DNA of 64,000 nt. Origin: Candidatus Spyradenecus sp. GTDB lineage: Bacteria; Verrucomicrobiota; Verrucomicrobiia; Opitutales; UBA953. This document shows, in pieces, positions 3 to 64,000 of this stretch (positions are counted from its first letter, which is position 1; every line of letters starts with the position of its first letter). The translations under genes and the position numbers were made by a program. The stretch covers positions 96,001-160,000 of the forward strand of contig JAZSKX010000014.1 in the NCBI GenBank assembly GCA_045535075.1, read 5' to 3'. The notes beneath the pieces are model-generated. The model was not told where the DNA came from and ran no database searches. It was given only the letters and a program-made list of their open reading frames with translations.

Positions 3-1667
3 AAAAATGTTACGATTCTTCCGCGCCCGCCCGTTCCCGCAGGTGCGATTGATCTGGGCGTTATTTCCGAGGAAACTCCGCAATGGACGCTTTCGAGCAC
101 GACGCCGAGGCAGGGCGATCCGGTTTACCTCGACTTAACGCTTGCGGGAAACGCAACGGGGCTTATTCCTCCCGAGCCGAAAATTGACGGATTTCGCACT
201 TATCCGGCGGAAGTTTCGACGCTCGACAATCGTGCAACCCGTGTCCGTATGATGCTCATTCCGCTTGCCGCCGGAGAACAAAAGCTGGCGCTGAACTTTG
301 CGACGCTGAATCCGGCAACACAGCAATACACGATCACGCGGATTGAAAAAACGCTTCAAGTGGAAAAAAATGCAACACTCGCCGCTCCCGCGACGACAGC
401 CGTTGTTCCGCTTGAACCCGAAAATTCGGATTCGGCGGTTTCCGCAGAAAATAACGCACCGCAGACAATCGCTTATATCCGACCGCTCGATGCGAAAATA
501 CTTGAACGCGGGAAAACGCCTCCCGGAAAAAAACTTTGGATTCCGTTTGCCGGTACGGGCGTCATCTTGCTCGCGTGCGCCGGAATTATGATTTTCCGTT
601 CCCGTAAGCATGACGATTCTTCGGAGGCGCTGCGTAAGCGGGCGCGTTCCCGCAAGAATGAACTTCTGAAAAAACTTGCGGCAAGTACGCCCGAAAATTT
701 TGATGCGTTGGTTCGCAGTGAAGTTGCCGATTATCTTGCCGATGCCAATGCCGCGACTTCGCTGGATGCGATTCGCGGTGAAATGAAGAAAAAAAATGCC
801 GCACTTGCCGAAGTTATCGATGCTGCAGAAAACGCAGGATATCGACCGAATGCGCGCTGCGAGCATTTTGAAAAATTCCGGGAAATTGTCGTTAAAGCCG
901 TGAAGCGCGGAGCATTTCTTTTCGTCGCGGGAATTCTTTTTCTTGCACTCCCGCAACGCGCCGAGGCATCCGCCGAGCCCGTTGCCGTCGAACAGAAAAT
1001 CCTCGAAGCGGAAAATGCTTACGCTAACGGGAATTTCGAAAAAGCGCGGGAAGGCTTCGCAGAGCTCAGCAAGCTTGCCCCTTATTCGCCTGACATTTGG
1101 TTCAATCTCGGCAATGCTCTTTACGGGCAAAAACAATTTGCTCCGGCCTTGGCGTGTTATGAGCGCGCGTGGCGACTGGACGTCGGACGTTCCGATATTT
1201 TGGCAAACCTCAACGCCGCCCGCGTAAAACTCAAGCTTCCGCTGGTCAACGAAGTCAAAAATCCCGCAGATTTTTTTGTCGTTTTGCGCGATTCTTTTTC
1301 TCCGTTCATGTGGACGATTTTTGCCTGTACCGCTTTGTCTGCGGGAGCAATCGTCTTCACTCTTATCCGTAAAAAGCGCGCACTTGTTGTCGTGCTTGCC
1401 TTCGGAATTTTCGGGTTCTGCATGGCGAATTTCTTTTCTCAGCAAAAAGTCTTGCGCGATGATTCGGCGGCAATCGTTGTCGCAAACGGCGCGGCGCTTT
1501 ACAGCCTTCCGATTAAAAATGTCGGGACAGCGCGCGAACTTTCTCAAGTTCCCGCGGGAACGGAAGTCTCCGTTTTGGAAGCGCGCGAATCCTGGTTTCT
1601 TGTCCGGCTTGCCGACGGTTTCGAAGGATGGGTGGAAAAAAGCGCAATCACCCGCCTTTGGGAATAA
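3..1667 (+). CDS. BatD-like protein with C-terminal TPR and SH3-like (BatE-like) region; 5'-partial
   Basis: The frame is open from base 3 (KNVTILPRPP...GDPVYLDLTLAGN...FRTYP), upstream of the ORF-track start at 249. It has TM segments, a TPR motif (WFNLGNALYGQKQFAPALACYERA) and an SH3-like end (GTEVSVLEARESWFLVRLADGFEGWV). Confidence 0.7.
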   Translation, partial: KNVTILPRPPVPAGAIDLGVISEETPQWTLSSTTPRQGDPVYLDLTLAGNATGLIPPEPKIDGFRTYPAEVSTLDNRATRVRMMLIPLAAGEQKLALNFATLNPATQQYTITRIEKTLQVEKNATLAAPATTAVVPLEPENSDSAVSAENNAPQTIAYIRPLDAKILERGKTPPGKKLWIPFAGTGVILLACAGIMIFRSRKHDDSSEALRKRARSRKNELLKKLAASTPENFDALVRSEVADYLADANAATSLDAIRGEMKKKNAALAEVIDAAENAGYRPNARCEHFEKFREIVVKAVKRGAFLFVAGILFLALPQRAEASAEPVAVEQKILEAENAYANGNFEKAREGFAELSKLAPYSPDIWFNLGNALYGQKQFAPALACYERAWRLDVGRSDILANLNAARVKLKLPLVNEVKNPADFFVVLRDSFSPFMWTIFACTALSAGAIVFTLIRKKRALVVVLAFGIFGFCMANFFSQQKVLRDDSAAIVVANGAALYSLPIKNVGTARELSQVPAGTEVSVLEARESWFLVRLADGFEGWVEKSAITRLWE

Positions 1668-1703
1668 GCCTCGGTTCCGGATTTTACAATTCGCGGGAAC
1701 GCC

Positions 1704-1772
1704 AAAAAACTCCGAAGCTTTCAATCTTACGGGAGCGCGATGGCTCAAGATTGAAAGCTTCGGAGCTTTTTT
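1704..1772. terminator. Bidirectional terminator-like hairpin between convergent genes
   Basis: 19-bp perfect inverted repeat CTCCGAAGCTTTCAATCTT (1710-1728) / AAGATTGAAAGCTTCGGAG (1747-1765), flanked by A and T tracts. Confidence 0.75.
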
Positions 1773-1815
1773 GTTTATAGGCGTGTAATTGAAGCCGCCT
1801 TTTTAAAAACGACAA

Positions 1816-3264
1816 TTACTTCATCGCGAGCGCCATTTTGTTCGCGGTGATGACGCCGTAATTGATCGTGCCGAGCCAGCCCGACATGATGATGCCGACC
1901 GATCCCGCGTGGTAAAGCCCGCGCACTTTTTCCGGCAATTCCATCGAAATCTTCAAACCCTCGAATTTCGTGCCGAACGAGGTGCCGTCGCGATGGCGCA
2001 CGTAGCGTTTGACGGTGCGCGGCGTCGCGGCTTCCACCCAATCGACCTTGGCGCGGATGTCCGGAATGTATTTTTCAAGCCCGGCAAACGATTCTTCGAT
2101 GATACGTTTTTTCTCCGCTTCGTAGGCTTCGTCGGAAAGATTTTCCCAGTTCGAAAAACGCTGATTAATCGACGTTACAATCGCGTAATGCGGGATTTTG
2201 CGTTGCGGGCGCGTGTCCGGATAGTAAACCGAGTAAGTGCGGGAGCTCGTGTGCAAATCGACGAGGTCGTCGCTGTCGAATTTCGGTGCTTCCGAGGTGA
2301 AAACGAGATCGCCGATGTGCGGGATCGTTTCGCCTTCGCGAATGCCCATGTAAACCTGGCAGGAAGAGGTGTTGACGCGCACGGCTTCGGATTCCGCGAG
2401 AAAATCGGCGGGAACGGTTCCCGGTTCAAGCATCTCTTCCACGGTATTGCGGATATTCGCGTTGGAAAGCACGGATTTGCAGGCGATTTCGACCGTTTCG
2501 CCGAAGCGCATATCGCGGACGCGCACGCCGCGCACTGCGGGAACGCCGTCGGTGCCGGTTTCGGTCAGAATCTTTTCCGCGAGGCAGTTGCGGCGGATGT
2601 CGACACCGTTTTTCTTGAGCTCTTCCGTCATTTTTTGAATGAGCAAATCGGTTCCGCCCTGGAAAATGTAAACGCCGCGGCTCATGAAGTTGGAAAAAAC
2701 AATTCCGTAGGTAATCGCGGGTTCGTTGAGCGTGGAACCGTTCGCGTAGGCGATCGGCTCAAGCAACAGGCGCCAAACGTCGGTGCGTCCGGGGAAAAAT
2801 TCTTCGAAGAGTTCCCGCGTTGTGCGTTTGTCGTTGTCGTAATAATTCATCTGCGCGAGATGCTCGAAAAATCCGTGAACGCGCTCGGCGGGAACGTTGA
2901 ATTTTTCGATGAGAATGCGCGTGAAATCTTCGCGGTCGAATGTCGTTTGAATATTAAATTCCGGATTGATGAAGCGGATGTCTTTGAGCTGGCGAATCGA
3001 ATCCGCGATTTCCTTGCTCCAGTATTTGCGGCAGGACTTAATCATGCCGTGCGGGAAACCGTGCAGGGAGATGTCAAAAATGTGTCCGCCCGGACGCTTA
3101 AAATACGTCGCGAGTCCGCCGAGCTGGTAGTGGTGTTCCAAGAGCAAAACGGAATGTCCCGCCTTGGCGAGATAGTTTGCGCCGGTGAGCCCGGCGAGCC
3201 CGCTGCCGATGACGATGGCGTCGTAAGATTTTTGAATGCCGAAAAGCGGATTGGAAGCTTGCAT
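1816..3264 (-). CDS. Phytoene desaturase-family FAD/NAD(P)-dependent oxidoreductase
   Basis: N-terminal Rossmann motif [13 protein letters not shown]...[12 protein letters not shown]-terminal AATPRT...GLYHAG motif. Confidence 0.8.
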
Positions 3265-4298: not shown

Positions 4299-4322
4299 CG
4301 TTGCGCATTTGAATTGATTTGC

Positions 4323-4947: not shown

Positions 4948-4987
4948 AAAAAAGCGTTCCCGTGAGGAAATTCCGCGGGAACGCTTT
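4948..4987 (-). terminator. Terminator built from an inverted pair of the RCGGGAACG motif (after the aminopeptidase gene)
   Basis: AAAGCGTTCCCGTG-aggaaattc-CGCGGGAACGCTTT; T tract on the minus strand. Confidence 0.8.
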
Positions 4988-5008
4988 GTTGCTTCGAAAC
5001 AGCAAAAG

Positions 5009-7334: not shown

Positions 7335-8215
7335 GGTTCGTAAGCGTTAATATCGTTTTCCAATAGACTTTTTCGGAAAGAGCGGATGCTTTGCTCCATT
7401 ACGGTTTGCGCTTGTTGCAACGTTCCCGCGTAGAGAATTCGAAGCTGCAAAAAAGGAAGCAAATGTTGCTTGAAGGCTTTGTCCAGCTCTTGCGGAAACG
7501 CGTCGTTGATTTTCAGCCACGACATAACGCGGGCATCGACAAGCGGGCGAAACGGTTCCATAAGGTCATAGGCAAGCGGCGTGGAGCGCTCTGCGGTAGC
7601 GTGCCCGATTCCGAACGTCGGATCTAACCCGTAAGCGTAGCAAAGCTGCAACACGCGTGCGAGCAAGACGGAATAGCCGTAATCCAAGAAAGAATTAATA
7701 ATACCTTCTCCGCGGGAACGCAAAAAGGCATCTGCGTCCAAATGCTTACGGAAAACACTCCAAAACAAACGACTTACCGTGCTTTCGCGGGCGCGGTAGC
7801 GGAGAAATTTTTGAGTTTCGATATCGGCAACGGCGGGCGCATTGGGCTCCCAAGTTGAAGCTAAAATGCCTTGGTTGTGGCATTTGGCATCGAGTGTTTT
7901 TTGCCAAAGCTCTTTGATGAATTTTGGATTCGCATGTTCCCAAGTCCGTGTCAATAGAGTGTCCGTGCTACGAATCGCAGGCAGGACGATGCAAACCGGC
8001 TTAAAGGCTTCACAAAGAATGACTCCGATCCCGCGCTTGGCGGCTTCTGTCAGAAGCCGCATCTCGATTTTTGCCGAAAACGAGCAAACGATGATTGCAC
8101 CGACATCGTCGAGCGGGATTTGTTGCGTTCCCGCGTCCGACGTGCAAATAAACTGCCCGCGCGCGCAATTGAGTTCCGCAGTTGGGCTTTCGATCGTGAT
8201 TACATGGTAGGACAA
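7298..8215 (-). CDS. cas1: CRISPR-associated endonuclease Cas1 (type II)
   Basis: IPLDD, NSFLDYGY, GIGH and LAYDLMEPFRPLVD motifs. Confidence 0.95.
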   Translation of the reverse strand: MSYHVITIESPTAELNCARGQFICTSDAGTQQIPLDDVGAIIVCSFSAKIEMRLLTEAAKRGIGVILCEAFKPVCIVLPAIRSTDTLLTRTWEHANPKFIKELWQKTLDAKCHNQGILASTWEPNAPAVADIETQKFLRYRARESTVSRLFWSVFRKHLDADAFLRSRGEGIINSFLDYGYSVLLARVLQLCYAYGLDPTFGIGHATAERSTPLAYDLMEPFRPLVDARVMSWLKINDAFPQELDKAFKQHLLPFLQLRILYAGTLQQAQTVMEQSIRSFRKSLLENDINAYEPWMAIDSKWAGC

Positions 8216-11200
8216 AGCGTTCCCGTGTAGCGAGGTTTGAGGATTTTGATTCCGGATCGGAGAAGCGTGTTTAAAACAACACCTTGCTTCGAATCTGGAG
8301 TGCCATTTTCCAACTTTATTTTATCTAAAGAATTCAGGTCTAACCAAATGCCCCGAATGGTATCTTTAATCGAAACAACGACCCACACACCCTTGTAATT
8401 ACCGGACAAAACTTCAATTTGTTGCCCGCGCCTCAAGATTCTCACCGGATTACCGCCGTTGCGCTCCCGCAGTTCCCGTAGCTTGGGGAAGACTTTAAAA
8501 TGCGGAATAACAACAGGTTCCGGATCAAGCGCGCAACCCCAATTTTCACAAATTTTCATAACGCCTTTGATATTTTTCAGCTTACTCTTTTTCTCTGCGG
8601 GAACGTTGTATCCGAGAAGTAATGACGGCTTTTCCGAGCCGAATTTAACAAAGCGTTTTCCTGAAGAATCAAGGCGTTCTTGCTTCGGTCCGCTTGTATG
8701 CTGCGATAGCGAAACTTTGTTGCCTTCGCCCTCTGTACCCTTGATGCTCCACGTCGTTTGTTCGACGGACATCCCGTGCATTTTTGCGGGAACGTGCTGA
8801 ACAACCCGGCATTCTTTGAGCCGCGCAGAAATCGCGTTTATCAAAGATTCCGGAAGTTCCTTCATCCTGATTTTTCCGCTCTCCGAAAAATCCAGAAGAT
8901 GTTCATACTTTGCATGAAGGATAAGGCGTTCCCGTTCCGTGAGATGGCGTTTCACGAGAAGTTTCCAATCCTCGGTGCGGAAAAAGATTCCGGTCAAGCC
9001 TTGAGTTACCGCGTCCATCGCATGGTGCAAGTGAGAAAGCTCCCGCATTTCCGATTTCGTCAATTTTCGGGAATCGTTGTCCCCGACACGCGCGATGCGT
9101 TGCATGCGCGGGACGGCTGCAACGAGGCACTCGTCAATGTTGAGATTTTTGCGAACGAATCCGGTAATCGCTCCCGCGAGATGGCGCGCGTGGATATTGA
9201 GATTTCTCTTTACGAGGCGAATCGCCATTTTGTTCAAATGCGAAGTCTGCGTAAGGTCGCGTTCGGTAAAATCAGCGTTGCGCTCGTCATATCTTTCAAG
9301 AAGCAAAAGCTCGGCGCGTCGGCGACACCGCGCTTGGTCTTCTTTGGAAAATCCCTTACGCAGTTTTTGCTTTTTGTGTGCGTCCACCCATTCCGTAAAG
9401 TTTTTAAGCGGTTGAATTTGGATGTTTAATCCGGGAACGTTTTTCCCGGCGAATTCCTTCATAAATTGCATTGCCGTACGTTGACCTTTCAAATCGTTTA
9501 CCGCTCGAAAAGTCATCACACACGAACTGAGCGCGTCAGACGGGCGCAACGAACGCGGAATAATGTGTTCAATATCCAAAATTCCGCCAAACAAATGCGG
9601 ATAATCAATCTTTTGCCCCGTGTAAGGACACGTAAAATTCTGGTCTTCAAGCAAGCGAGCCTTACGAATCAGCGAGCCGTTTACAACAATCCCTGCTTCA
9701 TCTGCCGCGTCCTCCAATTTTTTTGACACCAGCGAGAAATTTGCATTCTTCTCGTTGAGTTTTGCGGCAATTTCTTTCGAGTTCATTCCGGAAAATTCCC
9801 TTAAATCCCGAACGACTTCGATGATGACATCGCCGATATTTTCCGCGTTCCCGTCGGCGTATTCTTCGATAATGTCTTCCAACAAGCGGGAAAAGATCAA
9901 AAGACGGTGGCGTACCATGTGGTTGTTCGTCTGAGACGCAATCCACTTTTCGGTTGAATCTGCGGCGATGTCTTGTTCAACCCGTCCGAGCAAACGTTCC
10001 CGAATTTCTTCCGTCTCATACAAACAACCGCCGCTTTGCGTCGAATCCGTTCCCGCGAGAGCCTCCTCGAATGTTTTCCTAAGAATTTCGCGACAATAGC
10101 TTGCGCGCCCGCTCGGGAAATCGGCTTTAAATTTCAGATTTTTCAGATTCCGCCGTTTCCCGGATTTCCTTCTGTTTTCCGCATTTTGTAAAGTTTCAAG
10201 AACGGCGTGAAATTGCGCTTCCGCCTGCCAATTGCCCCACGTATTCATTTGTTCGATACATGCGGAAAGCTTTAATGTTTCTCCGCGCGCGAGCTTTGAC
10301 GCGAAAATCTTTTTCCCGCGATCGGAGAAGTATTTCCATAAATCTTTGATATATGTTTTCTTGGCGAGGAGTTTTTTCACGGGATCGAGAACGAGAGCGT
10401 CCTCCATTTCTTCTGTGAGAAAATAACTTTCCGTGTTGGCGGGTTTACAACCGGAAACTTCCTCAAGCGCGGCATTGATTGATTTTTTATCAAAGAAACC
10501 GACTTCCTGCATTTTCGCATGAAGGGCTTCGCGTTCCCGCGGAAGCAAAACGCGGACGTTCCCGTCAACGCCGAAAACCGTGAGATTATTCATCAAGCGT
10601 CCCCAGCGATACAGCAGATATTCCCGGCAGGATTTTAGCGGTACATTTTTTCCGGTGATGCGGCATTTGCCGATGATGCGGTTATCAAAACGCGGAACGT
10701 ATTGCCCGAAAAGTAATCCGCCTTTATCCGAAAACCTCGCGGGAAGATCTAGCGCGGAAACAACGTTTCCCGGAACCGCTTTCGTTAACGTGTCCATGAC
10801 GGCTTCGTCCAATTCCGGCAAAACGTTGATGTGCATCGAAAGAATTTTGCGCGTTTCCGCTTCCACGACATCGCGCGGGAACGCCGCGTTTTTCTCCTTA
10901 AAATAAACACGAGATGATTTTTTGTCGCCGAGAGGATTTAGTCCGAGGACGGCGCAAAACGTTTCCGCCATGCTTCTCGTTCCGTATTTCTCCATGAGAG
11001 AGCGTGCCGTATTCACTTTTTCAGTGTCTTCGCCGAGTTCTTCTTCCTCATCCAACGAATCGCCCGCCCAGAGCGCGTTCCCGTCGTAGCCGCGATTGTG
11101 TGCATACCAGCGAAGTACCGCCCAAAGCTCCTGCCACGAAAGTTTTTCGGAACCGGCGGACGCCAAAACGCGGGCGGCGAGAAACCACGGATAGCTGTTT

Positions 11201-11463
11201 GCGTTTTCGTTGAGTTGCGCTTTCGTAAGAACGCCCAAGGACTCCAAATAATTTTTCAAATGCGCAACGCGGGAACGCTTCGCCGCAATATTTCTGCGGG
11301 AACGCCGAAGTTCCCGACGCGCCGAAGCAAGACAGGAGTCCTTCGGGAAGAGAATCGTCCCGGCACCGAGCGACTCCGGAAATGTTTCTGAAACACGAAA
11401 AACGGACCAGCCGATAGACGCGTGACCGATGTCGAAAGAAAGAGTCAATTTTTGAGGAGGCAT
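8200..11463 (-). CDS. cas9: Type II-C CRISPR nuclease Cas9, about 1087 aa
   Basis: RuvC-I SFDIGHASIGW, Arg-rich bridge helix, RuvC-II IIEVVRD, HNH DIEHIIPRS and RuvC-III HHAMDA; no csn2 or cas4 in the locus. Start placed at ATG 11463 (MPPQKL). Confidence 0.96.
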   Translation of the reverse strand: MPPQKLTLSFDIGHASIGWSVFRVSETFPESLGAGTILFPKDSCLASARRELRRSRRNIAAKRSRVAHLKNYLESLGVLTKAQLNENANSYPWFLAARVLASAGSEKLSWQELWAVLRWYAHNRGYDGNALWAGDSLDEEEELGEDTEKVNTARSLMEKYGTRSMAETFCAVLGLNPLGDKKSSRVYFKEKNAAFPRDVVEAETRKILSMHINVLPELDEAVMDTLTKAVPGNVVSALDLPARFSDKGGLLFGQYVPRFDNRIIGKCRITGKNVPLKSCREYLLYRWGRLMNNLTVFGVDGNVRVLLPREREALHAKMQEVGFFDKKSINAALEEVSGCKPANTESYFLTEEMEDALVLDPVKKLLAKKTYIKDLWKYFSDRGKKIFASKLARGETLKLSACIEQMNTWGNWQAEAQFHAVLETLQNAENRRKSGKRRNLKNLKFKADFPSGRASYCREILRKTFEEALAGTDSTQSGGCLYETEEIRERLLGRVEQDIAADSTEKWIASQTNNHMVRHRLLIFSRLLEDIIEEYADGNAENIGDVIIEVVRDLREFSGMNSKEIAAKLNEKNANFSLVSKKLEDAADEAGIVVNGSLIRKARLLEDQNFTCPYTGQKIDYPHLFGGILDIEHIIPRSLRPSDALSSCVMTFRAVNDLKGQRTAMQFMKEFAGKNVPGLNIQIQPLKNFTEWVDAHKKQKLRKGFSKEDQARCRRRAELLLLERYDERNADFTERDLTQTSHLNKMAIRLVKRNLNIHARHLAGAITGFVRKNLNIDECLVAAVPRMQRIARVGDNDSRKLTKSEMRELSHLHHAMDAVTQGLTGIFFRTEDWKLLVKRHLTERERLILHAKYEHLLDFSESGKIRMKELPESLINAISARLKECRVVQHVPAKMHGMSVEQTTWSIKGTEGEGNKVSLSQHTSGPKQERLDSSGKRFVKFGSEKPSLLLGYNVPAEKKSKLKNIKGVMKICENWGCALDPEPVVIPHFKVFPKLRELRERNGGNPVRILRRGQQIEVLSGNYKGVWVVVSIKDTIRGIWLDLNSLDKIKLENGTPDSKQGVVLNTLLRSGIKILKPRYTGTLCPTM

Positions 11464-11514
11464 AGGGGCAAAATACAAGAAATTAAACGCATTTGTGATG
11501 ATTGAAAAAATAAC

Positions 11515-11542
11515 TTGCGCTACAAGGAGTTTAAAGCACAAT
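11515..11542 (+). promoter_or_regulatory. Putative tracrRNA promoter
   Basis: TTGCGC-16 nt-CACAAT immediately before the anti-repeat. Confidence 0.45.
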
Positions 11543-11548
11543 TAGTTT

Positions 11549-11663
11549 CGTCTTTTAGGAATCAAGACAAAGTTAATTAAGGCAGTTTGCTTCCCTTTCG
11601 TTCATGACGATACATTCAAATTCTGAAAGCCTTTTAAAAACCGCTCGTAAGGGCGGTTTTTTT
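11549..11663 (+). ncRNA. tracrRNA
   Basis: CTTTTAGGAATCAAGACAAAGT (11552-11573) is near-complementary to the repeat 5' end GCTTTGCCTTGATTCCAAAAG. It is followed by a TAAGGC nexus-like motif and a terminator CCGCTC-GTAA-GGGCGG-T7. Divergent from cas9. Confidence 0.85.
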
Positions 11664-11757
11664 GTGTGGAGAAAATTCGACATGTTTTTCGGCTGATGTC
11701 GGGGCGGTAAAAATTGTTTTCACTTGGCGGGGGGAATTTGAGAGGATAGAACACAAG

Positions 11758-12891
11758 ATGTTTTCTTCTTTTCAAAAAAAGTTGATTGCGGGGGCGGTGA
11801 GCGGGCTTGCGATTGTGGTTTTGTTGGCTCTTGTGGTCGGCTCGATCGGGATGGCGGCAAAGTTTATTGCGGCGTTCAATACGGTTATTTGGCCTTTGGT
11901 GATTGCGTCTCTTCTGGCGTTACTTTTACAGCCGATTTGTGATTTTTTGGAGTTGCGCTTGCGCTTCCCGCGTCCGCTCGCGATTTTCTCGATTTTTGTT
12001 TTATTGGCGTTGGCGGTTGCGGGAATGCTGTTTTGGTTTGTTCCCGTGATTATTCGTCAGGCGACGGAGTTTATTCAGCACATTCCGGTATTATGGGGGC
12101 AGCTTTTGGAAAATTGTCCGGCGTTGGCAGATTGGATTGAAGAACGTTTGGAGGACGGCGGGATTGTTGAGCGGATTCGCGAGAATCGGGAACTCGGAGC
12201 ACATCTTAAGGCGGTGGCTTCGGCTGCGCTTCCGAAGTTACAACAGATTTGGATGAAAGCGGAAGGACTTTTCGCTCAGGTGGTTGCGGCAGCCGTCGTG
12301 CCGATTTATTTTTATTATTTCATCAATGAACGACGTGATTTAATCGGAAAGGTCGAGACGGAGTTTGCCGCGATTATTCCGCGTAATGTTGCCGCAGATA
12401 TGGCATTTTTGATGCGGCAGTTCCGCGACATCGTTATTGCGTTTTTCCGCGGTCAATTCATTGTCGTAACGTGCTACGGGATTATTCTTGCCGTCGGCTT
12501 TTTCTTTTCCGGGCTTCCCGGCGCGATTCTTTTCGGGCTTGGGCTTGGCTATCTGAATATGATTCCGTATTTCGGTACGGTTGTCGGTCTGTGCGTGATT
12601 CTTCCGATTGCGTTTTTTTCCGGCGGGATTTGGATGCTTGCCGCCGTTATCGGTGTTTTCTGTGTTGCCCAGCTTGCTGAAGCCTACTGGCTTACGCCGA
12701 AAATTATGGAGCGCCACACGGGCTTACACCCGATGATAATCATGATTTCAATCTTCTTTTGGGCGATTGCGCTCGACGGAATTCTCGGTATGATTTTGGC
12801 GGTGCCGCTGACGGCATTTTTCGTCGTTTTCTGGCGCTTATTAAAAGAACGTTATCTAACGAAAAAAACGCCTACGCTTTTGCAGGATTAA
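11758..12891 (+). CDS. AI-2E family transporter
   Basis: Multi-TM protein with FFRGQ, MIPYFG, LTPKIM...GLHP and GILGMILAVP motifs. Confidence 0.88.
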   Translation: MFSSFQKKLIAGAVSGLAIVVLLALVVGSIGMAAKFIAAFNTVIWPLVIASLLALLLQPICDFLELRLRFPRPLAIFSIFVLLALAVAGMLFWFVPVIIRQATEFIQHIPVLWGQLLENCPALADWIEERLEDGGIVERIRENRELGAHLKAVASAALPKLQQIWMKAEGLFAQVVAAAVVPIYFYYFINERRDLIGKVETEFAAIIPRNVAADMAFLMRQFRDIVIAFFRGQFIVVTCYGIILAVGFFFSGLPGAILFGLGLGYLNMIPYFGTVVGLCVILPIAFFSGGIWMLAAVIGVFCVAQLAEAYWLTPKIMERHTGLHPMIIMISIFFWAIALDGILGMILAVPLTAFFVVFWRLLKERYLTKKTPTLLQD

Positions 12892-12900
12892 AAATCGATT

Positions 12901-14343
12901 ATGCCGGACTTAGGATTTTCTCAGTTTCAGAAGCTGTCGCAGGAGCAGACGCTTTCGCCGCAGATTATCCGTGCGTTAAATTTGTTGCAGACTCCGTCGC
13001 CGGAGCTCGGGCGCGAGATTTCCGAAGAACTTGCCAAAAACCCGCTTTTGGAGCTTTCCGATGACGGGCGTTCTCCGCTTGCAATGCAGCTTCCCGAAAA
13101 CCCTGAAACTCCGCGTGAGTCGACGACGAGAGAACTTCCCGAAGACGGAGAGGACAATGCCTTGCGGCGCGATGATTGGCGGGAACGCGATGATTTTCCG
13201 AGCTATACGCGCGTTTGGACGCGGGAGGACGATGAGCGTCGCGCGCATCTTTTCAATTCGCTTGTCGAAAAAGATTCGCTTCACGATGTTTTGGACGAAC
13301 AAATCGGTCTTGCCGACGCGGATGCGGGAACGCAGAACATTTTGCGGGCAATTGCCGAACGATTGGACGAGAAGGGCTTTCTTGAAGTTCCCGTCGAAGC
13401 GCTTGCTGAGGAAATCGGCGTTCCCGTGCGAAAAGTCGAGCAGGCGCTTGATATTTTTCAGGGCTTTGAGCCGGCGGGAATCGGAGCGCGTAATCTGCGG
13501 GAGCTTTTTAAAATTCAATTAAAACGCAACGGGCGGGAACGTTCGTTGGCGTATCGCATTGTCGATGAAGCTTATGAGATGTTTCTCGGAAGAAAGTTTC
13601 CGGCGATTGCTGACCGGTTCGGTGTCAGCGATTCGGCTTTGCGCGACGCAATCGAAGAAATTTCGCGCATCAATCGCGTTCCCGCGAAGGATTTTGTAGC
13701 CGACGACAATCGCGAGATTTTCCCGGATTTGACTTTTTTCTTTGATGAAGAAAATGCGGTTTGGTCCGTGAAGTCTAATTTCGACTACGTTCCGAAGTTG
13801 CGAATTTCCCGAGACTACAAGCAAATGCTTGCGACCGGAAAAATTCCGGAAAAAGAACGTGCGTATTTTACGGAAAAATTACGCGACGGAAAATCGTTGA
13901 TTACCGCATTGGAGGAGCGCTGTAAGACGATTGAAAAAATCGGAAAGGTGCTTTTGGAAATCCAAGAAGATTTTCTTGAAAAAGGACCGGCGGCATTGCG
14001 CCCGCTGACGATGGCGGAGGTGGCTTCCTGTATCGAAATGCACGAAACGACGGTTTCCCGTGCAGTCGCCAATAAATACGCCGAAACGCCTTGGGGTATT
14101 TGGGAATTGCGCAAGTTTTTTACCGCCTCGATTCCGACAAATTCGGGCGTGTCGATGTCCAATGCCGGTGTCCGGGAAGTACTCAAGGAAATTCTCGCCG
14201 AGGAGCCGCCGACGGCACCGCTGAGCGACGAAAAAATAGCGGAAGTGCTTGCCGAGCGCGGGATTCAGGTTGCCCGGCGCACAGTTGCCAAATATCGCGG
14301 CATGTTGAATATTCCTCCTGCGCATCTTCGCCGAAAATTTTAA
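12901..14343 (+). CDS. rpoN: RNA polymerase sigma-54 factor
   Basis: Q-rich N-terminus, EPAGIGARNL, MHETTVSRA and RpoN box ARRTVAKYR. Confidence 0.97.
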   Translation: MPDLGFSQFQKLSQEQTLSPQIIRALNLLQTPSPELGREISEELAKNPLLELSDDGRSPLAMQLPENPETPRESTTRELPEDGEDNALRRDDWRERDDFPSYTRVWTREDDERRAHLFNSLVEKDSLHDVLDEQIGLADADAGTQNILRAIAERLDEKGFLEVPVEALAEEIGVPVRKVEQALDIFQGFEPAGIGARNLRELFKIQLKRNGRERSLAYRIVDEAYEMFLGRKFPAIADRFGVSDSALRDAIEEISRINRVPAKDFVADDNREIFPDLTFFFDEENAVWSVKSNFDYVPKLRISRDYKQMLATGKIPEKERAYFTEKLRDGKSLITALEERCKTIEKIGKVLLEIQEDFLEKGPAALRPLTMAEVASCIEMHETTVSRAVANKYAETPWGIWELRKFFTASIPTNSGVSMSNAGVREVLKEILAEEPPTAPLSDEKIAEVLAERGIQVARRTVAKYRGMLNIPPAHLRRKF

Positions 14344-18446: not shown

Positions 18447-18480
18447 CGCAATCGCGGTAACGCCCCACGGAAATTTCCTG

Positions 18481-18509
18481 TTGCACGGATTCTGCCGGCG
18501 CGATAGGAT
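18481..18509 (+). promoter_or_regulatory. Putative sigma70 promoter of guaB
   Basis: TTGCAC-17 nt-TAGGAT. Confidence 0.5.
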
Positions 18510-18530
18510 ACGACGGCAACAAGGTTACTT

Positions 18531-20105
18531 ATGGCAATGCACATCGACGATCAATTCTATAAACACTCTGACGACTTTTTCGCCGCGAACGCGGGAACGG
18601 GACTGACTTACGACGACGTCTCGCTCGCGACATGCTTCTCTGACGTGCTCCCGCGCATGACGCGCCTCGACACGACAATTTCCGACAAAATTTCGCTCTC
18701 GCTTCCGATTATGTCCGCCGACATGGACACCGTTACGGAATCGACGATGGCAATCGCCATGGCTCTTCACGGCGGGATCGGCATGATTCACTACAACATG
18801 TCGAACGCCGACCAAATTGAAAAAGTCCGCCGCGTCAAAAGCTACATTCACGGCATGATTGATCGCCCGGCGACCGTTCCCGCAGACATCACCGTCGGCG
18901 ACGTGCTCGCGATGATTGAAGCGAACGATTACAATTTTTCCACGTTCCCGGTGGTCGATAAAAACGGCGTTTTGCTCGGCTTGCTCCGCGGCGGCGTCGT
19001 CAAAAGCCGCCACGCCGCGCACAAAGTTGCCGACGTGATGATCCCGCGCGAACAGGTTTTGACGATTCAGGAAAAAGATCTCGGCGGCGACCCGATTGCG
19101 ACTGCCGACCGCATTTTCCTTGAACACATCGGCACGAACAAACTTCTCGTCGTCAACGAAAAAGGTCAGCTTCGCGGTTTGTTCACGCTTTCGGACATTG
19201 AGCGCATTCGCGACGAAGCGGGAACGGATGCGATTCGCCCGTCGCGCGACGAAAATTTCCGCCTGCGTTGCGGAGCCTCCGTTGCCGTGCCGCGCTTTCC
19301 GGACGGACGCGTGAATTACGACGCGCTCAACGAACACGTTTCCAATCTCGTCGCCGTCGGCGTTGACGCGGTTATCATTTCCACGGCGCACGGTCATTCG
19401 GCGGGCGTCGGCGAATGCGTGCGTTTTGTGCGCGACCATTTTCCGGAACTGACGATTATTGCCGGGAACGTGACGAGCGGCGAAGGCGTGGAGTTTTTGG
19501 CGGACGCTGGAGCGGATTCCGTTAAAATCGGGCAGGGTCCGGGTTCGATTTGCTCAACGCGCATCGTTGCCGGCGTCGGGATCCCGCAGCTTACGGCACT
19601 TTACGTTTCCGCGCAGGCGGCAAAGAAAAAAGGCGTGCGCATTATCGCGGACGGCGGCATCACGAAGTCCGGAGACATTGTGAAAGCTTTGACGCAGGCG
19701 GATTGCGTGATGCTCGGCGGCATGCTTGCGGGTTGCAAGGAAGCGCCGGGGAAGATCATGGAAATCAACGGCAAACTTTACAAAGAATACCGCGGCATGG
19801 GCTCGCTTGAAGCGATGCGCCACGGCTCGGCGGCACGCTACGGGCACGACCTGCGCAACAGCAAAATCACGAAGGTTGCTGCAGAAGGCGTGGAAGCGCT
19901 CAAGGAAGTTTCCGGAAGCGTGGATCAGATTCTGATTACGCTCGCGGGCGGCGTCCAAAGCGGTTTGGGCTATCTCGGCGCTCCGGATTTGAAAACCCTG
20001 CGGGAACGCGCGCGCTTCATTCGCGTTACGCCGGCGGGACAACGTGAATCTGCGCCGCACGACATCGTCGAAATCAAAACCGCACCGGGAACACCGCGCC
20101 GGTAA
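18531..20105 (+). CDS. guaB: IMP dehydrogenase (with CBS pair)
   Basis: [24 protein letters not shown] and YRGMGS motifs. Confidence 0.95.
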
Positions 20106-20120
20106 GCTTAAAATTAGGCT

Positions 20121-21839: not shown

Positions 21840-21935
21840 CGGGGACGAATGACTGACCGGTCGGGAGGGCACGGATTCCGAAAATTAAAAATCGGCGTTC
21901 CCGCCAAGGACTTGACGGGAACGCAAAAAACAAAA

Positions 21936-26020: not shown

Positions 26021-26028
26021 TTTTACCG

Positions 26029-32715: not shown

Positions 32716-32754
32716 AACGTTCCCGCGGAGTGAATTCGCGGGAACGTTTTTTTT
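32716..32754 (+). terminator. Terminator built from an inverted pair of the RCGGGAACG motif
   Basis: AACGTTCCCGCG-gagtgaatt-CGCGGGAACGTT followed by a T tract, 25 nt after the stop codon. Confidence 0.85.
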
Positions 32755-33321
32755 GTGAATTTATAAGAATTGCGGGCAGAATATTTCTTTTGCCCTTTCA
32801 GGGCGTGGGTGATTTTTGGATTTTGTACCCAAGGTGTCGTTCGCGTTGCGAACTTGCCGTTGGGCTGAACTCCGATCGGCTTTCAGCCGAACCTCGGCGC
32901 GTTCCCGTGGAATGATTTGCGGGAACGTTTTGTGAATTTTATCCGCGTTTTCGTCGACGAAGTGATTTGAGAATTCGCACGTTCCCGGCAAATTAAATTC
33001 GGCTGAAAGCCGCTTGGAATTTCAGCCCGAGGCAAAATGAGCGCAGCGAATGTCGCCTCGGGTTTTTGTATAAAAATATTCGCCCTGAAAGGGCAAAAGA
33101 ACGTTCCCGCGAAAATGTTTTGTGAATTTATGAAAAATTGCGGGCAGAATATTTCTTTTGCCCTTTCAGGGCGCGGGTGATTTTGGATTTCGTTCCCAAG
33201 GCGTCGTTCGCGTTGCGAACTTGCCGTTGGGCTGGACTCCGTTCGGCTTCCAGCCGAAACCCCGGCGCGTTCCCGTGGAATGATTAGCGGGAACGTTTTC
33301 ACATTTCCCGGCTGAAAGCCG
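32751..33321 (-). repeat. REP/REPIN-like element cluster: full inverted copy B (32788-33098) plus a duplicated arm (33118-33299)
   Basis: GCCCTTTCAGGGC...CCCAAGG.GTCGTTCGCGTTGCGAACTTGCCGTTGGGCT occurs twice. AGCCCGAGGCAAAATGAGCGCAGCGAATGTCGCCTCGGG...GCCCTGAAAGGGC is a near reverse complement of 34613-34690. Confidence 0.85.
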
Positions 33322-41063: not shown

Positions 41064-41185
41064 GCGTTTATTTAGTCAGAATTTTTCTCCGAGGAAAACA
41101 GTTTAAAACGTTTTCCGGAAGCGAATTTCGAGCGGGGAAGAACGCAATCGCCGCCGCGTTTTTGCGGGAGAGAAATCCCTTTTTT

Positions 41186-45119: not shown

Positions 45120-45157
45120 AAAAAACGTTCCCGCAGATTTCACGGGAACGTTTTTTT
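45120..45157. terminator. Bidirectional terminator built from an inverted pair of the motif
   Basis: AAAAAACGTTCCCG-cagatttca-CGGGAACGTTTTTTT between convergent genes. Confidence 0.85.
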
Positions 45158-47941: not shown

Positions 47942-47975
47942 GCGTTCCCGCGATTTGCGTTGCGGGAACGCTTTT
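47942..47975 (+). terminator. Terminator built from an inverted pair of the motif
   Basis: GCGTTCCCGC-gatttgcgtt-GCGGGAACGC-TTTT. Confidence 0.75.
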
Positions 47976-50015: not shown

Positions 50016-50052
50016 AAAAAGCGTTCCCGTGAAAACCCGCGGGAACGCTTTT
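50016..50052 (-). terminator. Terminator built from an inverted pair of the motif
   Basis: AAAAGCGTTCCCGTG-aaaacc-CGCGGGAACGCTTTT. Confidence 0.8.
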
Positions 50053-58154: not shown

Positions 58155-59537
58155 ATGCTCACCGTCGGAATTGTTTCTTTAGGTTGTCCCAAAAATCAAT
58201 CGGACTCGGAGGTGCTCATCGGGCACATGCTCGAAGCCGGAATGACGCTTACCGCTGATCCGCGCGAGGCGGACGCCGTCGTCGTCAACACCTGCTCGTT
58301 CATTCTCGACGCACGTAAGGAAAGCTTGGACGCGATTTCCGAAATGGCGAAAGAAGCCAAACGCCGCCGCAAAAGCGCCAAACCGCTTAAAATCGTCGTC
58401 GCCGGCTGTATGCCGCAACGCTACGGCGAAAAAATCCGCGAAATGATTCCGCAGGCGGACGCATTTATCGGTATTGATGAGCTGGAAAAAATTTCGCCGC
58501 TCATCGAAAAACTTTGCGGGAACGCCGGGAAGCCTCTCGCGAAAGACGGACGCGTTCCCGTCGCCGTTTCCAAGCGCCCGCGCTACATTCCGGATTATTC
58601 CACGCCGCGCGCGCGCCTTACGCTCCCGCACATCGCCAACGTCAAAATCGCCGAAGGCTGTAATCACGGTTGCGCGTTTTGTGCGATTCCCGGCATTCGC
58701 GGCAAACACCGTTCCCGCGCGATTGCCGATATTGTCGCCGAAGTAAAAACGCTTGTCCAAGTCAACGGCGTAAAGGAAATCAACCTGATTTCTCAGGATA
58801 CGACTTATTTCGGCATGGACACGTGGCAAAAAACAAAGGTCGGCAAAACCACGAAAGTTTCTTCCGAAGAAGGCGAATCGCTCGCCGTGCTTTTGCGCGC
58901 GCTCAACCGCATTCGCGGCGATTTCTGGATCCGCGTTTTTTACACGCACCCTGCGCATTGGAGCGACGAGCTGATTTCCGTTTTCGCCAAATGCAAAAAA
59001 GTCGTTCCCTACATTGATATTCCGCTTCAGCATATTTCCGACAACATGTTGGCTGCGATGAAGCGGGAAACCGACGGAAAGTATATCCGCGATTTAATTA
59101 CAAAAATCCGCAAGGGCATTCCCGGCGCCGTCATTCGCTCGACGTTCATTGTCGGCTTCCCCGGCGAAACCAAGGAAGATTTTGAGGAGCTTTCCGCATT
59201 TTTAGGCGAAGCAAAATTTGATCGCGTCGGCGTTTTCCAATATTCCAAGGAAGAAAACACACGTGCGGCGCTGATGCCGGACCAAGTTGCTCCCGCAGAA
59301 AAAGTGCGGCGTTGGAACGCGACGATGGTCCAACTTCAAAAAATTTCGCGGGAACGCATGCGATCCCGCGTCGGCGAAAAAATCCGCGTTCTCGTGGACG
59401 AGCCCGGAATCGCGCGCTCTGCCGGCGACGGCTTCGACGTGGACGGCTTGGTTTTCGTGCCGAAAAGCCTGCCCGTCGGAGAATTTGCGGAGGTAACCGT
59501 TACCGGCTACAAGGCTTACGATTTGATCGCGAAGTAA
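58155..59537 (+). CDS. rimO: Ribosomal protein S12 methylthiotransferase
   Basis: SLGCPKN, NTCSFI, KIAEGCNHGCAFCAIP and a C-terminal TRAM domain. Confidence 0.95.
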   Translation: MLTVGIVSLGCPKNQSDSEVLIGHMLEAGMTLTADPREADAVVVNTCSFILDARKESLDAISEMAKEAKRRRKSAKPLKIVVAGCMPQRYGEKIREMIPQADAFIGIDELEKISPLIEKLCGNAGKPLAKDGRVPVAVSKRPRYIPDYSTPRARLTLPHIANVKIAEGCNHGCAFCAIPGIRGKHRSRAIADIVAEVKTLVQVNGVKEINLISQDTTYFGMDTWQKTKVGKTTKVSSEEGESLAVLLRALNRIRGDFWIRVFYTHPAHWSDELISVFAKCKKVVPYIDIPLQHISDNMLAAMKRETDGKYIRDLITKIRKGIPGAVIRSTFIVGFPGETKEDFEELSAFLGEAKFDRVGVFQYSKEENTRAALMPDQVAPAEKVRRWNATMVQLQKISRERMRSRVGEKIRVLVDEPGIARSAGDGFDVDGLVFVPKSLPVGEFAEVTVTGYKAYDLIAK

Positions 59538-61674: not shown

Positions 61675-61802
61675 CCCTAAAAGCAGATTTTAAATTTCCG
61701 CAAAGAGATCGATTGAAGAATCGGTCTCTTTTTTACGTTTACCGGGCTTAAATGCGCTATTTCCTTGCTGTTAAAAGCCGTGAAAATTAGATTGAACCTC
61801 TT

Positions 61803-64000
61803 ATGAAAGCACCGATTATTCTAATCAGTTCATTGGTCGTTTTGCCGTTTATGACCGCATGCGGAGACAATTGTTGTAAGCCGGTTCCCGCGGAGAATGC
61901 CGTTGTCGCGGAAGCTGTCGTTCCCGCAGAAAAAATTCAAAATCCGTTTCTTCAGGAGGGATATGCGATTCGCTGGTCGGCGCTGACTCCGGAAAATATT
62001 GTTCCCGATACGCAGATTGCAATTGCCCGTGCTCAAAAGGCAATTGATAAAATTTGTGCGCTTACGCCGGAGCAATTGACCTATGACAATGTCGTGGGCG
62101 TTTATTGGAACGAATTCATGGCGCCGTTTGATTTTTTCTCCAGCTTGCTTGCGCACGTGAAGGATGTTTGCATGACGGAGGAATACAATGCCGAGTACGA
62201 AAAGGCGCTTCCGCTTATCGCCGAATTTGGTACGAGTGTCGATCTCAACCCCAAGCTTTGGGAAATATTCAAGGCCTACGCGGGAACGGAAGACGCTAAA
62301 AACCTTTCGCCGCAGAAAAAGCGTTATTTGGATAAAATTATCAACGGTTTCCGCGACGGCGGGGCGGATCTTCCCGCAGATAAAAAGGAAGAACTTAAGG
62401 AAATCAGCAAAGAGTTGACGACTCTCCGTCAGAAATTCTCACGCAACGTTCTTGATTCCATCAATGCATACTCGCTTCTGGTAACCGATCCCGCCCGGCT
62501 TGCAGGCTTGCCCGAAACCGAGCGAGCCGCCGCTTTGGAAGAGGCAAAGAAAGCGGGGAAAGCGAGCGACGAAAAGCCGGCTTGGATGTTCACCCTGCGC
62601 GCTCCGTCTTACTCGCCTGCGGTGAAATATTTGGATGATGCGGCGCTACGCAAAGAACTTTGGGCTGCGGCGAATGCGCAGTGCATCGGCGGAGAATTTG
62701 ATAATACGAAAATTACGCGCCGTATTCTTGAACTGCGCCAAAAGCGGGCTGAGATTCTCGGCGAGAAGAATTTCTCGGATCTGATTTTGAAACGCCGCAT
62801 GGCGAAAAACGGCGAAACCGCCTACAATTTCGTCCTTGAGCTTCAAGGCAAAACCAAGGCGGCGTTCTTGCGCGAATACGAAGAACTGAAGGCATTTCGC
62901 AAATCTCAGGATGCTGCGTATGACGGCGGCAATTTTGAGCCTTGGGACGTGGCATATTGGTCCGAAAAAATGCGCAAGGCCAAATACGATTTCGATTCCA
63001 ATTCCGTGAAACCGTATTTCTCGATGGAAAACGTTATGGACGGCATGTTCCGCTTCTTTGAAGAACTGCACGGATTGCGTATTCGTGAAGTCCCGTCCGC
63101 ATTCGTCGAGCTCGGTTCCGGAAAAAGCGTTCCGGCGGGAACGGTCGAAGTTTGGCATCCGGAAGTCAAATTCTATGAGCTTTTCGATGCGGAAACGAAC
63201 GCTCGAATCGGCGTTTTTTATACGGACTGGTATCCGCGCGCGTCCAAACGATCCGGAGCATGGATGCATCCGCTTGCCGTCGGCGATCGTAAAGCCGGAA
63301 TTCCGAATTTCGGACTTGTTTGCGGGAACATGACGGCTCCGGTCGGGAACGAACCGGCTTTGCTCACGCACTACGATGTCGAAACCATCTATCACGAATT
63401 CGGACACTTGCTTCACCACCTGCTCGGCAATACGGAAGTTCCCGCGCTTAACGGTACCAGCGTGGCTTGGGACTTTGTCGAGTTCCCGTCGCAACTTAAC
63501 GAAAATTGGACTTGGGAGCCGAGCGTTTTGAAGCGCTTCGCGAAACATTATAAAACCGGAGAAGTCATTTCGCAGTCGATCATCGACGGAATGTTGCGTG
63601 CCCGCAATTTCCAGGCGGCGTATGCACAAATGCGCCAGCTGAGCTTCGCGGGAAGCGATCTTTACATCCATCGCAACGCAAAGGCAATCGCCGGTCGCGA
63701 AGTCAACGATGTAGGAATGGAACTTGCGCGGGATTATTCCTGGCCGATGAAAACGCAGTCGAATACGATTTTGAATCGCCTTACGCACATTTTCTCGGGC
63801 GGATATTCTTCCGGTTATTATTCCTACAAGTGGGCGGAAGCGCTTGAAGCCGACGCTTACCTGAGCTTTAAAAATCCGGACGGTTCCATTAACTTCGAGA
63901 AAGGAAAAGAATACCGCAAAAAAATTCTGGAACGCGGCGACACGGTTGACGCGAACGAACTCTTCCGCGACTTCGTCGGGCGCGAGCCGGATTGGAACGC
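61803..64000 (+). CDS. M3 family oligopeptidase (PrlC/Dcp-like), lipoprotein; 3'-partial, absent from the ORF track
   Basis: ATG 61803 begins MKAPIILISSLVVLPFMTAC. In-frame HEFGH at 63393, then WDFVEFPSQ and GYYSYKWAE. Upstream TTGCTG-17-TAGATT. Confidence 0.92.
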   Translation, partial: MKAPIILISSLVVLPFMTACGDNCCKPVPAENAVVAEAVVPAEKIQNPFLQEGYAIRWSALTPENIVPDTQIAIARAQKAIDKICALTPEQLTYDNVVGVYWNEFMAPFDFFSSLLAHVKDVCMTEEYNAEYEKALPLIAEFGTSVDLNPKLWEIFKAYAGTEDAKNLSPQKKRYLDKIINGFRDGGADLPADKKEELKEISKELTTLRQKFSRNVLDSINAYSLLVTDPARLAGLPETERAAALEEAKKAGKASDEKPAWMFTLRAPSYSPAVKYLDDAALRKELWAAANAQCIGGEFDNTKITRRILELRQKRAEILGEKNFSDLILKRRMAKNGETAYNFVLELQGKTKAAFLREYEELKAFRKSQDAAYDGGNFEPWDVAYWSEKMRKAKYDFDSNSVKPYFSMENVMDGMFRFFEELHGLRIREVPSAFVELGSGKSVPAGTVEVWHPEVKFYELFDAETNARIGVFYTDWYPRASKRSGAWMHPLAVGDRKAGIPNFGLVCGNMTAPVGNEPALLTHYDVETIYHEFGHLLHHLLGNTEVPALNGTSVAWDFVEFPSQLNENWTWEPSVLKRFAKHYKTGEVISQSIIDGMLRARNFQAAYAQMRQLSFAGSDLYIHRNAKAIAGREVNDVGMELARDYSWPMKTQSNTILNRLTHIFSGGYSSGYYSYKWAEALEADAYLSFKNPDGSINFEKGKEYRKKILERGDTVDANELFRDFVGREPDWN

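Follow-up and report, generated by a model that had tools for sequence, protein, structure and literature searches.

The locus and its word

The stretch of DNA analysed here, referred to as the window, comprises the 64,000 nucleotides at positions 96001-160000 of contig 1 of the genome studied, G000 (1,949,087 bases in 18 contigs, rated 99.45% complete). Alongside a gene for a Cas9-like protein, its genes include Pfam matches to PATR repeats, to GH95 and to an M60 peptidase, and dispersed through the whole window is a short word, CGGGAACG, whose reverse complement is CGTTCCCG and for which the word read backwards serves as control. This word is maintained by a directional force whose target is the DNA rather than the proteins; the force is genus-specific and is off in some lineages. 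Two features describe the word's spread in the window:

32..63488, no strand assigned: dispersed word, with 187 copies of CGGGAACG and 233 CGGGAAC cores (the 7-mer cores span 33-63488)
11305..13179, no strand assigned: widest interval in the window that is free of the 8-mer (1.9 kb)

The 187 copies divide into 102 on the plus and 85 on the minus strand. Over 100 dinucleotide-preserving shuffles the expectation is 6.30 (sd 2.37, largest 13), and not one of the 100 reached 187. A preliminary description of this DNA had counted the motif by hand over bases 1-11500, and a recount returns its figures exactly: 44 CGGGAAC/GTTCCCG cores (23 plus, 21 minus), 38 copies of CGGGAACG and 34 of RCGGGAACG. 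Its remark that the motif occurs on both strands, in several gene frames and between genes also holds genome-wide, where all six frames are used and the strands carry 2,527 (plus) and 2,632 (minus) copies.

In G000 as a whole, CGGGAACG is the commonest 8-mer, with 5,159 copies (2.65/kb, about one per 380 bases), compared with 1,228 for the commonest unrelated 8-mer and 77 for the reversed word; the 7-mer core CGGGAAC occurs 6,528 times. A logo over 6,527 cores confines the information to positions -3 to +8, with the consensus Y-R-CGGGAAC-G-C (about 11 positions), and because no flank is conserved beyond about 11 nt, the word is not part of a longer repeat. One-mismatch variants are plentiful and are chiefly transitions (CGGGAGCG, 857 copies; CGGGAACA, 800; CGGAAACG, 608). 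The gaps between words are near exponential (coefficient of variation 1.09) and show no striking regularity.

Excess over coding and composition

Most copies lie in coding sequence. On 1,429 self-trained gene calls, which agree with Pfam matches, 4,222 of the 5,159 copies are wholly inside called genes, and the density is 2.52/kb within genes and 3.40/kb outside them. This location, together with the roughly 11 informative positions, led us to reject a repeat of the repetitive extragenic palindrome (REP) or miniature inverted-repeat transposable element (MITE) class, in which the unit is tens of bases long and mainly intergenic. The genes of G000 hold 4,228 copies (2,544 sense, 1,684 antisense), whereas 20 rounds of synonymous-codon shuffling within each gene gave a mean of 465 (largest values 333 sense and 189 antisense), so that the observed number is about 9-fold higher; a codon-order shuffle on cruder gene calls gave 158. 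The synonymous-codon control is conservative because the codon usage that it retains was itself distorted by the word. The enrichment pointed out in the preliminary description therefore withstands shuffles that preserve codons and amino acids.

The word occupies all six frames (sense 385, 1,455 and 704; antisense 260, 273 and 1,151) and fills about 60-80% of the peptide contexts able to carry it. In the sense frames these contexts are [SPTA]GT (1,455 of 1,990), RER (385 of 486) and xGN-G (704 of 1,175), and in the antisense frames RSR (260 of 324), [SPTA]FP (273 of 452) and xVP-G (1,151 of 1,647). Despite this saturation, CGG makes up 12% of arginine codons overall in G000. Only 7 of 503 genes of at least 1,200 bp are free of the 7-mer core. 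Three giant [AST]GT-rich genes hold the word in the sense orientation, as x-G-T tripeptides:

G000 contig 5, 125845-140217: giant gene, 4,790 amino acids (aa), with 61 sense and 0 antisense words
G000 contig 8, 185333-198142: giant gene, 4,269 aa, with 47 sense and 0 antisense words
G000 contig 9, 13798-25875: giant gene, 4,025 aa, with 37 sense words and 1 antisense word

Conservation of word sites and their decay in four species

The genus set comprises 19 genomes, of which 15 are word-rich and four (G001, G002, G013 and G014) are word-poor. In blastn alignments to G000, word-rich relatives keep the word at the same site far more often than they keep any 8-mer: 47 of 58 sites in G003 (any 8-mer 26%), 40 of 56 in G018 (17%), 30 of 42 in G015 (18%) and 36 of 64 in G004 (21%). 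The word-poor genomes keep it at the background rate, with 26 of 128 sites in G001 (any 8-mer 26%) and 10 of 113 in G014 (11%). The words that G001 does have in aligned DNA coincide with G000 words in 26 of 27 cases.

A codon-position test, in which alignments of at least 94% identity were removed and positions inside G000 words were compared with those outside, locates this conservation at silent sites. In eight word-rich relatives, third-codon-position identity is 0.69-0.91 inside words and 0.50-0.63 outside, whereas at first and second positions seven of the eight have nearly the same identity inside as outside, with a difference of no more than 0.05; in the remaining one, G009, which is the smallest sample, they are lower inside words (0.75 vs 0.89). 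The period-3 dips of the flanks are accordingly flattened inside the word in word-rich relatives and not in G013. Third positions in the word-poor genomes are nearly the same inside and outside, at 0.62 (n=6,476) vs 0.59 (n=287,073) in G013, 0.62 vs 0.63 in G001 and 0.51 vs 0.50 in G014.

Because the sites decay neutrally in the four word-poor species, those lineages have lost the maintaining force. By several genes G000 is nearest to the clade of G001, G002 and G013 (for LepA, 86-87% vs 80-82%, with similar margins elsewhere), yet its word sites are common to distant word-rich species, which makes the word ancestral to the genus. The G001 clade has therefore lost whatever maintains it. G014, the most divergent member of the genus, has a residual excess of 5.7-fold and shares 10 of 18 sites, which suggests that it underwent the same loss.

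Distribution across relatives

The word is confined to one Opitutales-like genus of Verrucomicrobiota. The LepA protein of G000 is 80% identical to that of metagenome-assembled genomes labelled uncultured Opitutae and 69-70% identical to that of Puniceicoccaceae and Opitutaceae metagenome-assembled genomes. All 19 genus genomes contain CGGGAACG in excess, at 552-7,777 copies (0.29-4.5/kb), where the reversed word occurs 74-159 times; in the other 102 of 121 family genomes, which belong to four sister genera, CGGGAACG stays within about 2.4-fold of the reversed-word control, which is background. Likewise, the 10-mer GCGGGAACGC has 138-3,301 copies in all 19 genus genomes (control 8-35) and 0-49 copies in 12 other families of the order (control 0-55).

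Within the genus the word is the top 8-mer in sampled stretches of nine of ten relatives, the exception being the word-poor G014. The same word with the same flanks recurs in all ten, and no dialect was found within genus or family, although guanine-plus-cytosine (GC) content in the sampled relatives runs from 46.5% (G009) to 64.5% (G004) and in the genus from 46 to 65%. An apparent dialect, CGGGTACG, was the top 8-mer of an 80-kb sample of the sister-genus genome G031; it was rejected, as it derives from one giant gene, lies on one strand and has period-3 flanks, and genome-wide it has 163 copies against 141 for its control. In G031 contig 2, 1-50000, a minus-strand giant gene rich in T-G-T encodes ACGGG[TC]ACG, a local mimic of a related word.

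Among the titles listed, our literature search found no description of CGGGAACG, or of uptake sequences, in Verrucomicrobia; for uptake sequences and HIP1, the work listed concerned Neisseriaceae, Pasteurellaceae and cyanobacteria.

Inverted pairs as terminator stems

Neighbouring words are arranged in a preferred order. Among neighbours at most 40 nt apart, 203 stand in the order CGTTCCCG...CGGGAACG and 49 in the opposite one, with 89 and 100 in the two direct orders; the start-to-start distance of the inverted pairs peaks at 20. At least one gene 3' end adjoins 154 of the 203 inverted pairs, and 45 lie inside called genes. We folded five of the window's hairpins and all five are stable (-17.9 to -27.0 kcal/mol, z -4.5 to -6.9), with U-runs after them and often A-runs before. 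Inverted pairs of the word form predicted intrinsic terminators, and the window offers the following examples, none with an assigned strand:

4955..4983: inverted pair CGTTCCCG-N13-CGGGAACG, A-run before and T-run after, putative terminator hairpin, -24.6 kcal/mol
21896..21923: inverted pair between two gene ends
32718..32746: putative inverted-pair terminator hairpin after a 1,200-aa PATR-repeat gene, -27.0 kcal/mol
32900..32927: inverted pair at the end of copy 1 of an intergenic unit of 368 nt that is duplicated
33268..33295: inverted pair at the end of copy 2 of this unit
45126..45150: putative inverted-pair terminator hairpin between convergent genes, -17.9 kcal/mol
47943..47970: putative inverted-pair terminator hairpin and top match of a simple terminator scan, -24.8 kcal/mol
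50022..50047: putative inverted-pair terminator hairpin between convergent genes, -25.6 kcal/mol

The simple terminator scan gave 48 matches overall vs 43.8 in shuffles and was thus no richer than chance, because its loop limit misses most inverted pairs.

The 368-nt unit is an observation in its own right. It stands in tandem at 32765-33300 of the window, in copies that are 92-96% identical and each end in a word hairpin, and relatives 79-94% identical lie at G000 contig 8, 242.3-243.5 kb. The unit may be a multi-copy small RNA gene; an Rfam search of the window and of locus L136 gave no match.

Foreign DNA and phages

Long stretches without the word are in excess in G000, with 28 gaps longer than 2 kb vs 7.5 expected. 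The deserts above 2.5 kb are mostly of low GC (0.39-0.44) and contain, or lie next to, restriction-modification genes and prophage-like blocks, and word density rises with gene GC, from 0.59/kb below 42% to 3.56/kb above 58%. Two word-poor blocks and one window gene illustrate the contrast:

G000 contig 8, 22.8-35 kb: prophage-like block, word-poor
G000 contig 16, 183-210 kb: prophage-like block, word-poor
Window 8200..11541, minus strand: Cas9-like gene of 1,113 aa with HNH (HNH_4) and RuvC_III domains; 14 words, 4.19/kb, the native density

At 4.19/kb the Cas9-like gene would be a long-standing resident.

When viral contigs were scanned with the hairpin as seed, 120 loci were returned, 80 of them long, and just one of the 80 is word-rich. 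This contig (L283, IMG/VR, 15 kb) represents one end of a prophage and encodes terminase, portal, tail and baseplate proteins; its phage part has about 1.9 words/kb, and its host flank is 81% identical to G000. A further contig (L341, IMG/VR, 636 nt) holds a dense GCGGGAACCGT-like iteron array; it is an unrelated viral contig with a different word and a chance match.

Gene flow between species

Between 14.5 and 62 kb of the window, three single genes are 97-99% identical to the distant word-rich genomes G016 and G007, whereas identity drops to 67-82% in their neighbours and stays at or below 90% throughout in the sister clade; the background identity of G016 and G007 to G000 is about 70-80%:

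18471..20107, plus strand: inosine monophosphate (IMP) dehydrogenase gene and a short upstream stretch, 99% to G016 and 97% to G007 with flanks at 67-82%; 6 words, 3.67/kb
38720..41100, minus strand: GH95 gene, 97% to G016 and G007 vs 73-74% to the sister clade; 12 words, 5.04/kb
58155..59536, plus strand: 460-aa gene, 99% to G016 and 97% to G007 vs 83-84% to the sister clade; 4 words, 2.89/kb

The IMP dehydrogenase tract consists of the gene and about 35-60 bases upstream, beyond which the G016 flanks are non-homologous. The limits of the high-identity tracts coincide with gene borders, since the adjoining genes are not the same in the compared genomes. The identities for this gene are graded (G016 99, G007 97, G010 92, G011 91, G017 90, sister clade 87-88%), which suggests that G000 was the recipient of the allele. 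On a larger scale, a 10.6-kb block without rRNA at G000 contig 16, 40599-51249, matches G016 at 97-98% identity; judged by the starts of its protein sequences, it appears to hold the pst and atp operons.

Across sampled loci, 20.5 of 174 kb aligned from eight word-rich genomes are at least 95% identical to G000, and this share takes in core genes (the presumed pst and atp operons, IMP dehydrogenase and GH95). In the word-poor G013, none of the 106.9 kb aligned to these loci reaches 90%, and of 957 kb aligned to G000 only 640 bp reach 95%. These alignments show recent, gene-sized allele replacement between species among distant word-rich members of the genus.

Competence and pilus machinery

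The preliminary description had proposed a search for competence genes. G000 has ComEC, DprA, a secretin, PilB/PilT-type ATPases and pilin-like genes; a canonical ComEA was not found in it. ComEC was recognised by its Competence domain and a weak DUF4131 match, and the secretin gene encodes 984 aa. The three genes upstream of the secretin gene can be read, by position, as PilM/N/O-like. Three T2SSE-type ATPases are present, two PilB-like and one PilT-like, the gene adjoining the latter being PilC-like if read by its position. There are seven pilin-like open reading frames (ORFs), a four-gene cluster and three others.

Across 744 orthologues of G000 and G013 the median identity is 86.6%. The secretin reaches 90%, the pilins 80-89%, DprA 77% and ComEC only 63%. 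ComEC belongs to the syntenic proteins that diverge fastest, most of which are secreted or located in membranes. Its gene, at G000 contig 11, 3775-5487, stands next to one that is 98% identical between the two genomes. The gene-content comparison with G013, which covered 1.34 of about 2.1 Mb and yielded 67 unannotated syntenic-deletion genes, produced no candidate reader of the word.

An extra GspE-type ATPase occurs in G001, G002, G013, G014, G004 and G018. Four extra pseudopilin-like ORFs are found in the same six genomes and in G012, seven genomes in all; no additional ATPase turned up in G012, a genome of 82% completeness. Examples of these extra genes lie at G013 contig 39, 13528-14703, and contig 19, 73028-74499. 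Twelve genus genomes, G000 among them, are without the set, which does not follow the distribution of the word.

What maintains the word

We propose that an uptake-sequence-like drive is the most likely force maintaining the word, with a probability of roughly 40%. This reading is favoured because it explains most of the features together: the strand symmetry, the terminators, the poverty of foreign DNA in words, the restriction to one clade, the one-off variants and the gene-sized exchange. We infer both the biased uptake and a reader within the pilus or competence apparatus. In such a mechanism, a component of the type IV pilus/ComEC/DprA import route would bind word-bearing fragments preferentially, and imported alleles that carry the word would replace word-free alleles more often than the reverse. 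The word would spread in this way into every silent position able to hold it and then stay fixed, and inverted pairs would be reused as terminator stems. Newly acquired foreign DNA would come without the word, and lineages that lose the specificity of the reader would lose the word by neutral decay.

Several observations weigh against uptake as the cause. The ComEC of G000 is without a C-terminal lactamase-type domain, and ComEA above the TIGR00426 cut-off is found neither in G000 nor in any of 61 family genomes. The best HHH_3/TIGR00426 matches in G000 are open frames of about 800 aa and 1,334 aa, which from their first residues we presume to be Tex-like and DnaE, respectively. The TIGR00426 matches in the 61 genomes are frames of about 800 aa or more, here taken for Tex-like proteins across the family, together with one of 357 aa at a contig end. 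ComEC, DprA, the T2SSE ATPases, the N_methyl pilin-like ORFs and a 141-aa pilin are intact in all 19 genus genomes, and each of the four word-poor species also retains the four-gene pilin cluster and the small pilin in intact form. Being equally intact where the word is poor, the competence genes do not discriminate, and loss of a known competence gene was rejected as the cause of word loss. About 400 of the 5,159 copies stand in hairpin pairs and about 82% lie within genes, where one preprint places about half of DNA uptake sequence (DUS) and uptake signal sequence (USS) copies in terminators (10.1101/2025.10.24.684340). The gene-flow contrast compares one word-rich with one word-poor genome, two of the loci sampled for it were chosen around the high-identity IMP dehydrogenase match, and shared habitat could explain the contrast.

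The suggestion in the preliminary description of a self-recognition signal for natural transformation thus stands in part. It gains from the shuffles, the weak polarity, the terminators, the absence from foreign islands, the restriction to one genus and the silent-site conservation, and it loses from the missing ComEA and from competence genes that do not discriminate. The alternative named in the same description, a protein-binding or methylation signal of genome-wide reach, is still a candidate.

The rival that survives best is a chromosomal word like HIP1, kept by an in-cell process unrelated to uptake, which we consider doubtful. Candidates for that process are a mismatch repair, sequence-directed or dependent on methylation, by which the word is restored, and selection on the sites bound by an abundant nucleoid protein. 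Scale speaks for it: the density, which reaches 4.5/kb in relatives, and the silent-site saturation of 60-80% are far above those of DUS and USS and closer to those of HIP1, and the silent sites are conserved between species. It would also accommodate competence genes that do not track word loss. The HIP1 literature describes an over-representation of 15- to 300-fold with conservation within and between ORFs (PMC5861425), loss in some lineages (PMC5861425, PMC4390886), a methylation-dependent repair model (PMC4390886) and a debate over function among repair, nucleoid structure and uptake, with a role in DNA uptake now proposed (PMC13756078). A further preprint reportedly also treats HIP1 as an uptake signal (10.1101/2024.09.10.611283). 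Since HIP1 itself is now a proposed uptake sequence, the uptake and HIP1-like readings may converge.

Against a HIP1-like process, the word is not palindromic, and no methylase of the classes searched is matched to it. C5 methylases are sporadic, occurring in 10 of 19 genus genomes, missing from eight word-rich ones and present in three of four word-poor ones; they do not track the word, and C5 methylation with very-short-patch (VSP)-type repair was rejected as its reader. G000 has no PF01555 methylase, and phosphorothioation at GAAC (Dnd) was rejected, no DndC having been found there. Its three type I HsdM genes include one common to the word-poor sister G013 (93% identical), and the others stand beside word-free islands. 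The sole native-looking methylase is a full-length MmeI-family type IIL restriction-modification enzyme (G000 contig 2, 15779-18766, with native word density), which has 11 homologue clusters at 75-87% identity before a drop to about 62% in many phyla and was not found in the 64% of the G013 genome covered. Its alignment to MmeI (5HR4) places I642, K645, E751, N773, L774, E806, R808 and R810 at the contact positions. By the contacts given in PMC4833311 it is predicted to read N-[A/C]-C-G-A-C, not CGGGAAC, and it too was rejected as the word's reader. Moreover, repair alone leaves the arm order of the terminators and the difference in gene flow unexplained.

A second rival, which we judge improbable, is a self mark for nucleases or other defence, Chi-like for RecBCD/AddAB and free of orientation dependence, in which native DNA is rich in the word and invaders are poor. 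The foreign islands and prophage-like blocks of G000 are indeed poor in it, and the 1.9 words/kb in the prophage end of L283 fits adaptation to a host. However, no candidate enzyme was found, Chi-type examples are strongly polar where this word is not, and word-rich contigs are rare among the long viral loci (1 of 80).

The third, a polar chromosome-maintenance signal of the Chi or FtsK-orienting (KOPS) type, is highly implausible and is effectively refuted by the strand counts. The word is a G-rich 8-mer that slightly favours the strand with positive GC skew: among 20-kb bins, those whose skew exceeds 0.02 hold 1,122 plus and 952 minus copies, and those below -0.02 hold 899 and 1,150. Taking the sign of GC skew as a proxy, however, the leading strand carries just 54.9% of all copies and 53.1% of intergenic ones, so that the strong replichore polarity named in the preliminary description as favouring Chi or KOPS is absent. 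Gene orientation accounts for part of even this excess, as 58% of genes are co-oriented with the leading strand and the sense strand carries 60% of the copies in genes; being G-rich, the word also contributes to the very GC skew that serves as the ruler. Two strongly one-sided bins arise because the giant [AST]GT-rich genes carry sense-only words. Chi is also far rarer, the density of this word being more than ten times the Chi value.

The reading of the word as a side effect of codon usage, of repeats in peptides, of base composition or of a small mobile repeat has a negligible chance of being correct: sense-biased words in three giant genes, and a sister-genus look-alike that was itself the artefact of a single giant gene, show how such an effect could arise, but the reading is refuted by the codon shuffles with their use of six frames and both strands, by the narrow logo, by the dominance of the same word from 46.5% to 64.5% GC and by conservation at silent positions with none extra at coding ones.

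Significance and comparison with known systems

To our knowledge, sequence-specific DNA uptake has been established in two proteobacterial families only. Here, the same kind of genome-wide word is found in another phylum, at a density above that of DUS and USS. A single genus holds 15 species that keep the word and four in which it decays neutrally, a contrast that is missing in the classical cases and that makes the reader and the maintenance of the word a comparative-genomics problem with a clear design. Word density also provides a practical marker that parts native from recently acquired DNA in these genomes, and in word-rich species gene-sized alleles are replaced across 20-30% sequence divergence.

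Chi and KOPS resemble the word in being G-rich octamers over-represented in the host chromosome; unlike it, they are strongly strand-polar and far rarer, the split here being 55:45.

HIP1 of cyanobacteria (GCGATCGC) is likewise an octamer with several copies per kb, conserved at orthologous sites and lost in some lineages (PMC5861425, PMC4390886). A further trait of HIP1-type words is periodicity on a scale of 10-90 kb. HIP1 is a palindrome tied to orphan methyltransferases, whereas CGGGAACG is asymmetric and is tracked by no methyltransferase of the classes searched.

The USS of Pasteurellaceae is a 9-mer core with AT-rich flanks whose receptor is unproven, although ComN has reportedly been proposed for that role in a preprint (10.1101/2025.06.16.659825). 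It shares with the word a short asymmetric core, weakly informative neighbours, a genic location with frame preferences, abundant one-mismatch variants and use in terminators. The word differs in having no extended AT-rich flank, a much higher density and saturation, and no accompanying ComEA.

The DUS of Neisseriaceae is 10-12 nt long, occurs about once per kb and has the minor pilin ComP as its receptor. Like it, the word is short and non-palindromic, lies on both strands and in several gene frames, forms inverted-pair terminators, is common to related species and poor in foreign DNA, and is accompanied by type IV pilus, ComEC and DprA genes and by gene-sized exchange between species. Unlike the DUS, it is a different word in Verrucomicrobiota, at 2.6-4.5/kb rather than about 1/kb, some 82% coding, without dialects in genus or family and with neither ComEA nor a ComP-like receptor found.

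Set beside these systems, the word could, on a tentative view, represent a third, independently evolved DNA-uptake-sequence system, the first in Verrucomicrobiota and the densest known. Such a system would operate without ComEA and would include natural loss lineages (G001/G002/G013 and G014), and the word would act as both barrier and bridge for gene-sized exchange across 20-30% divergence. If so, comparing the word-loss lineages with their 15 word-rich sister species would identify the receptor.

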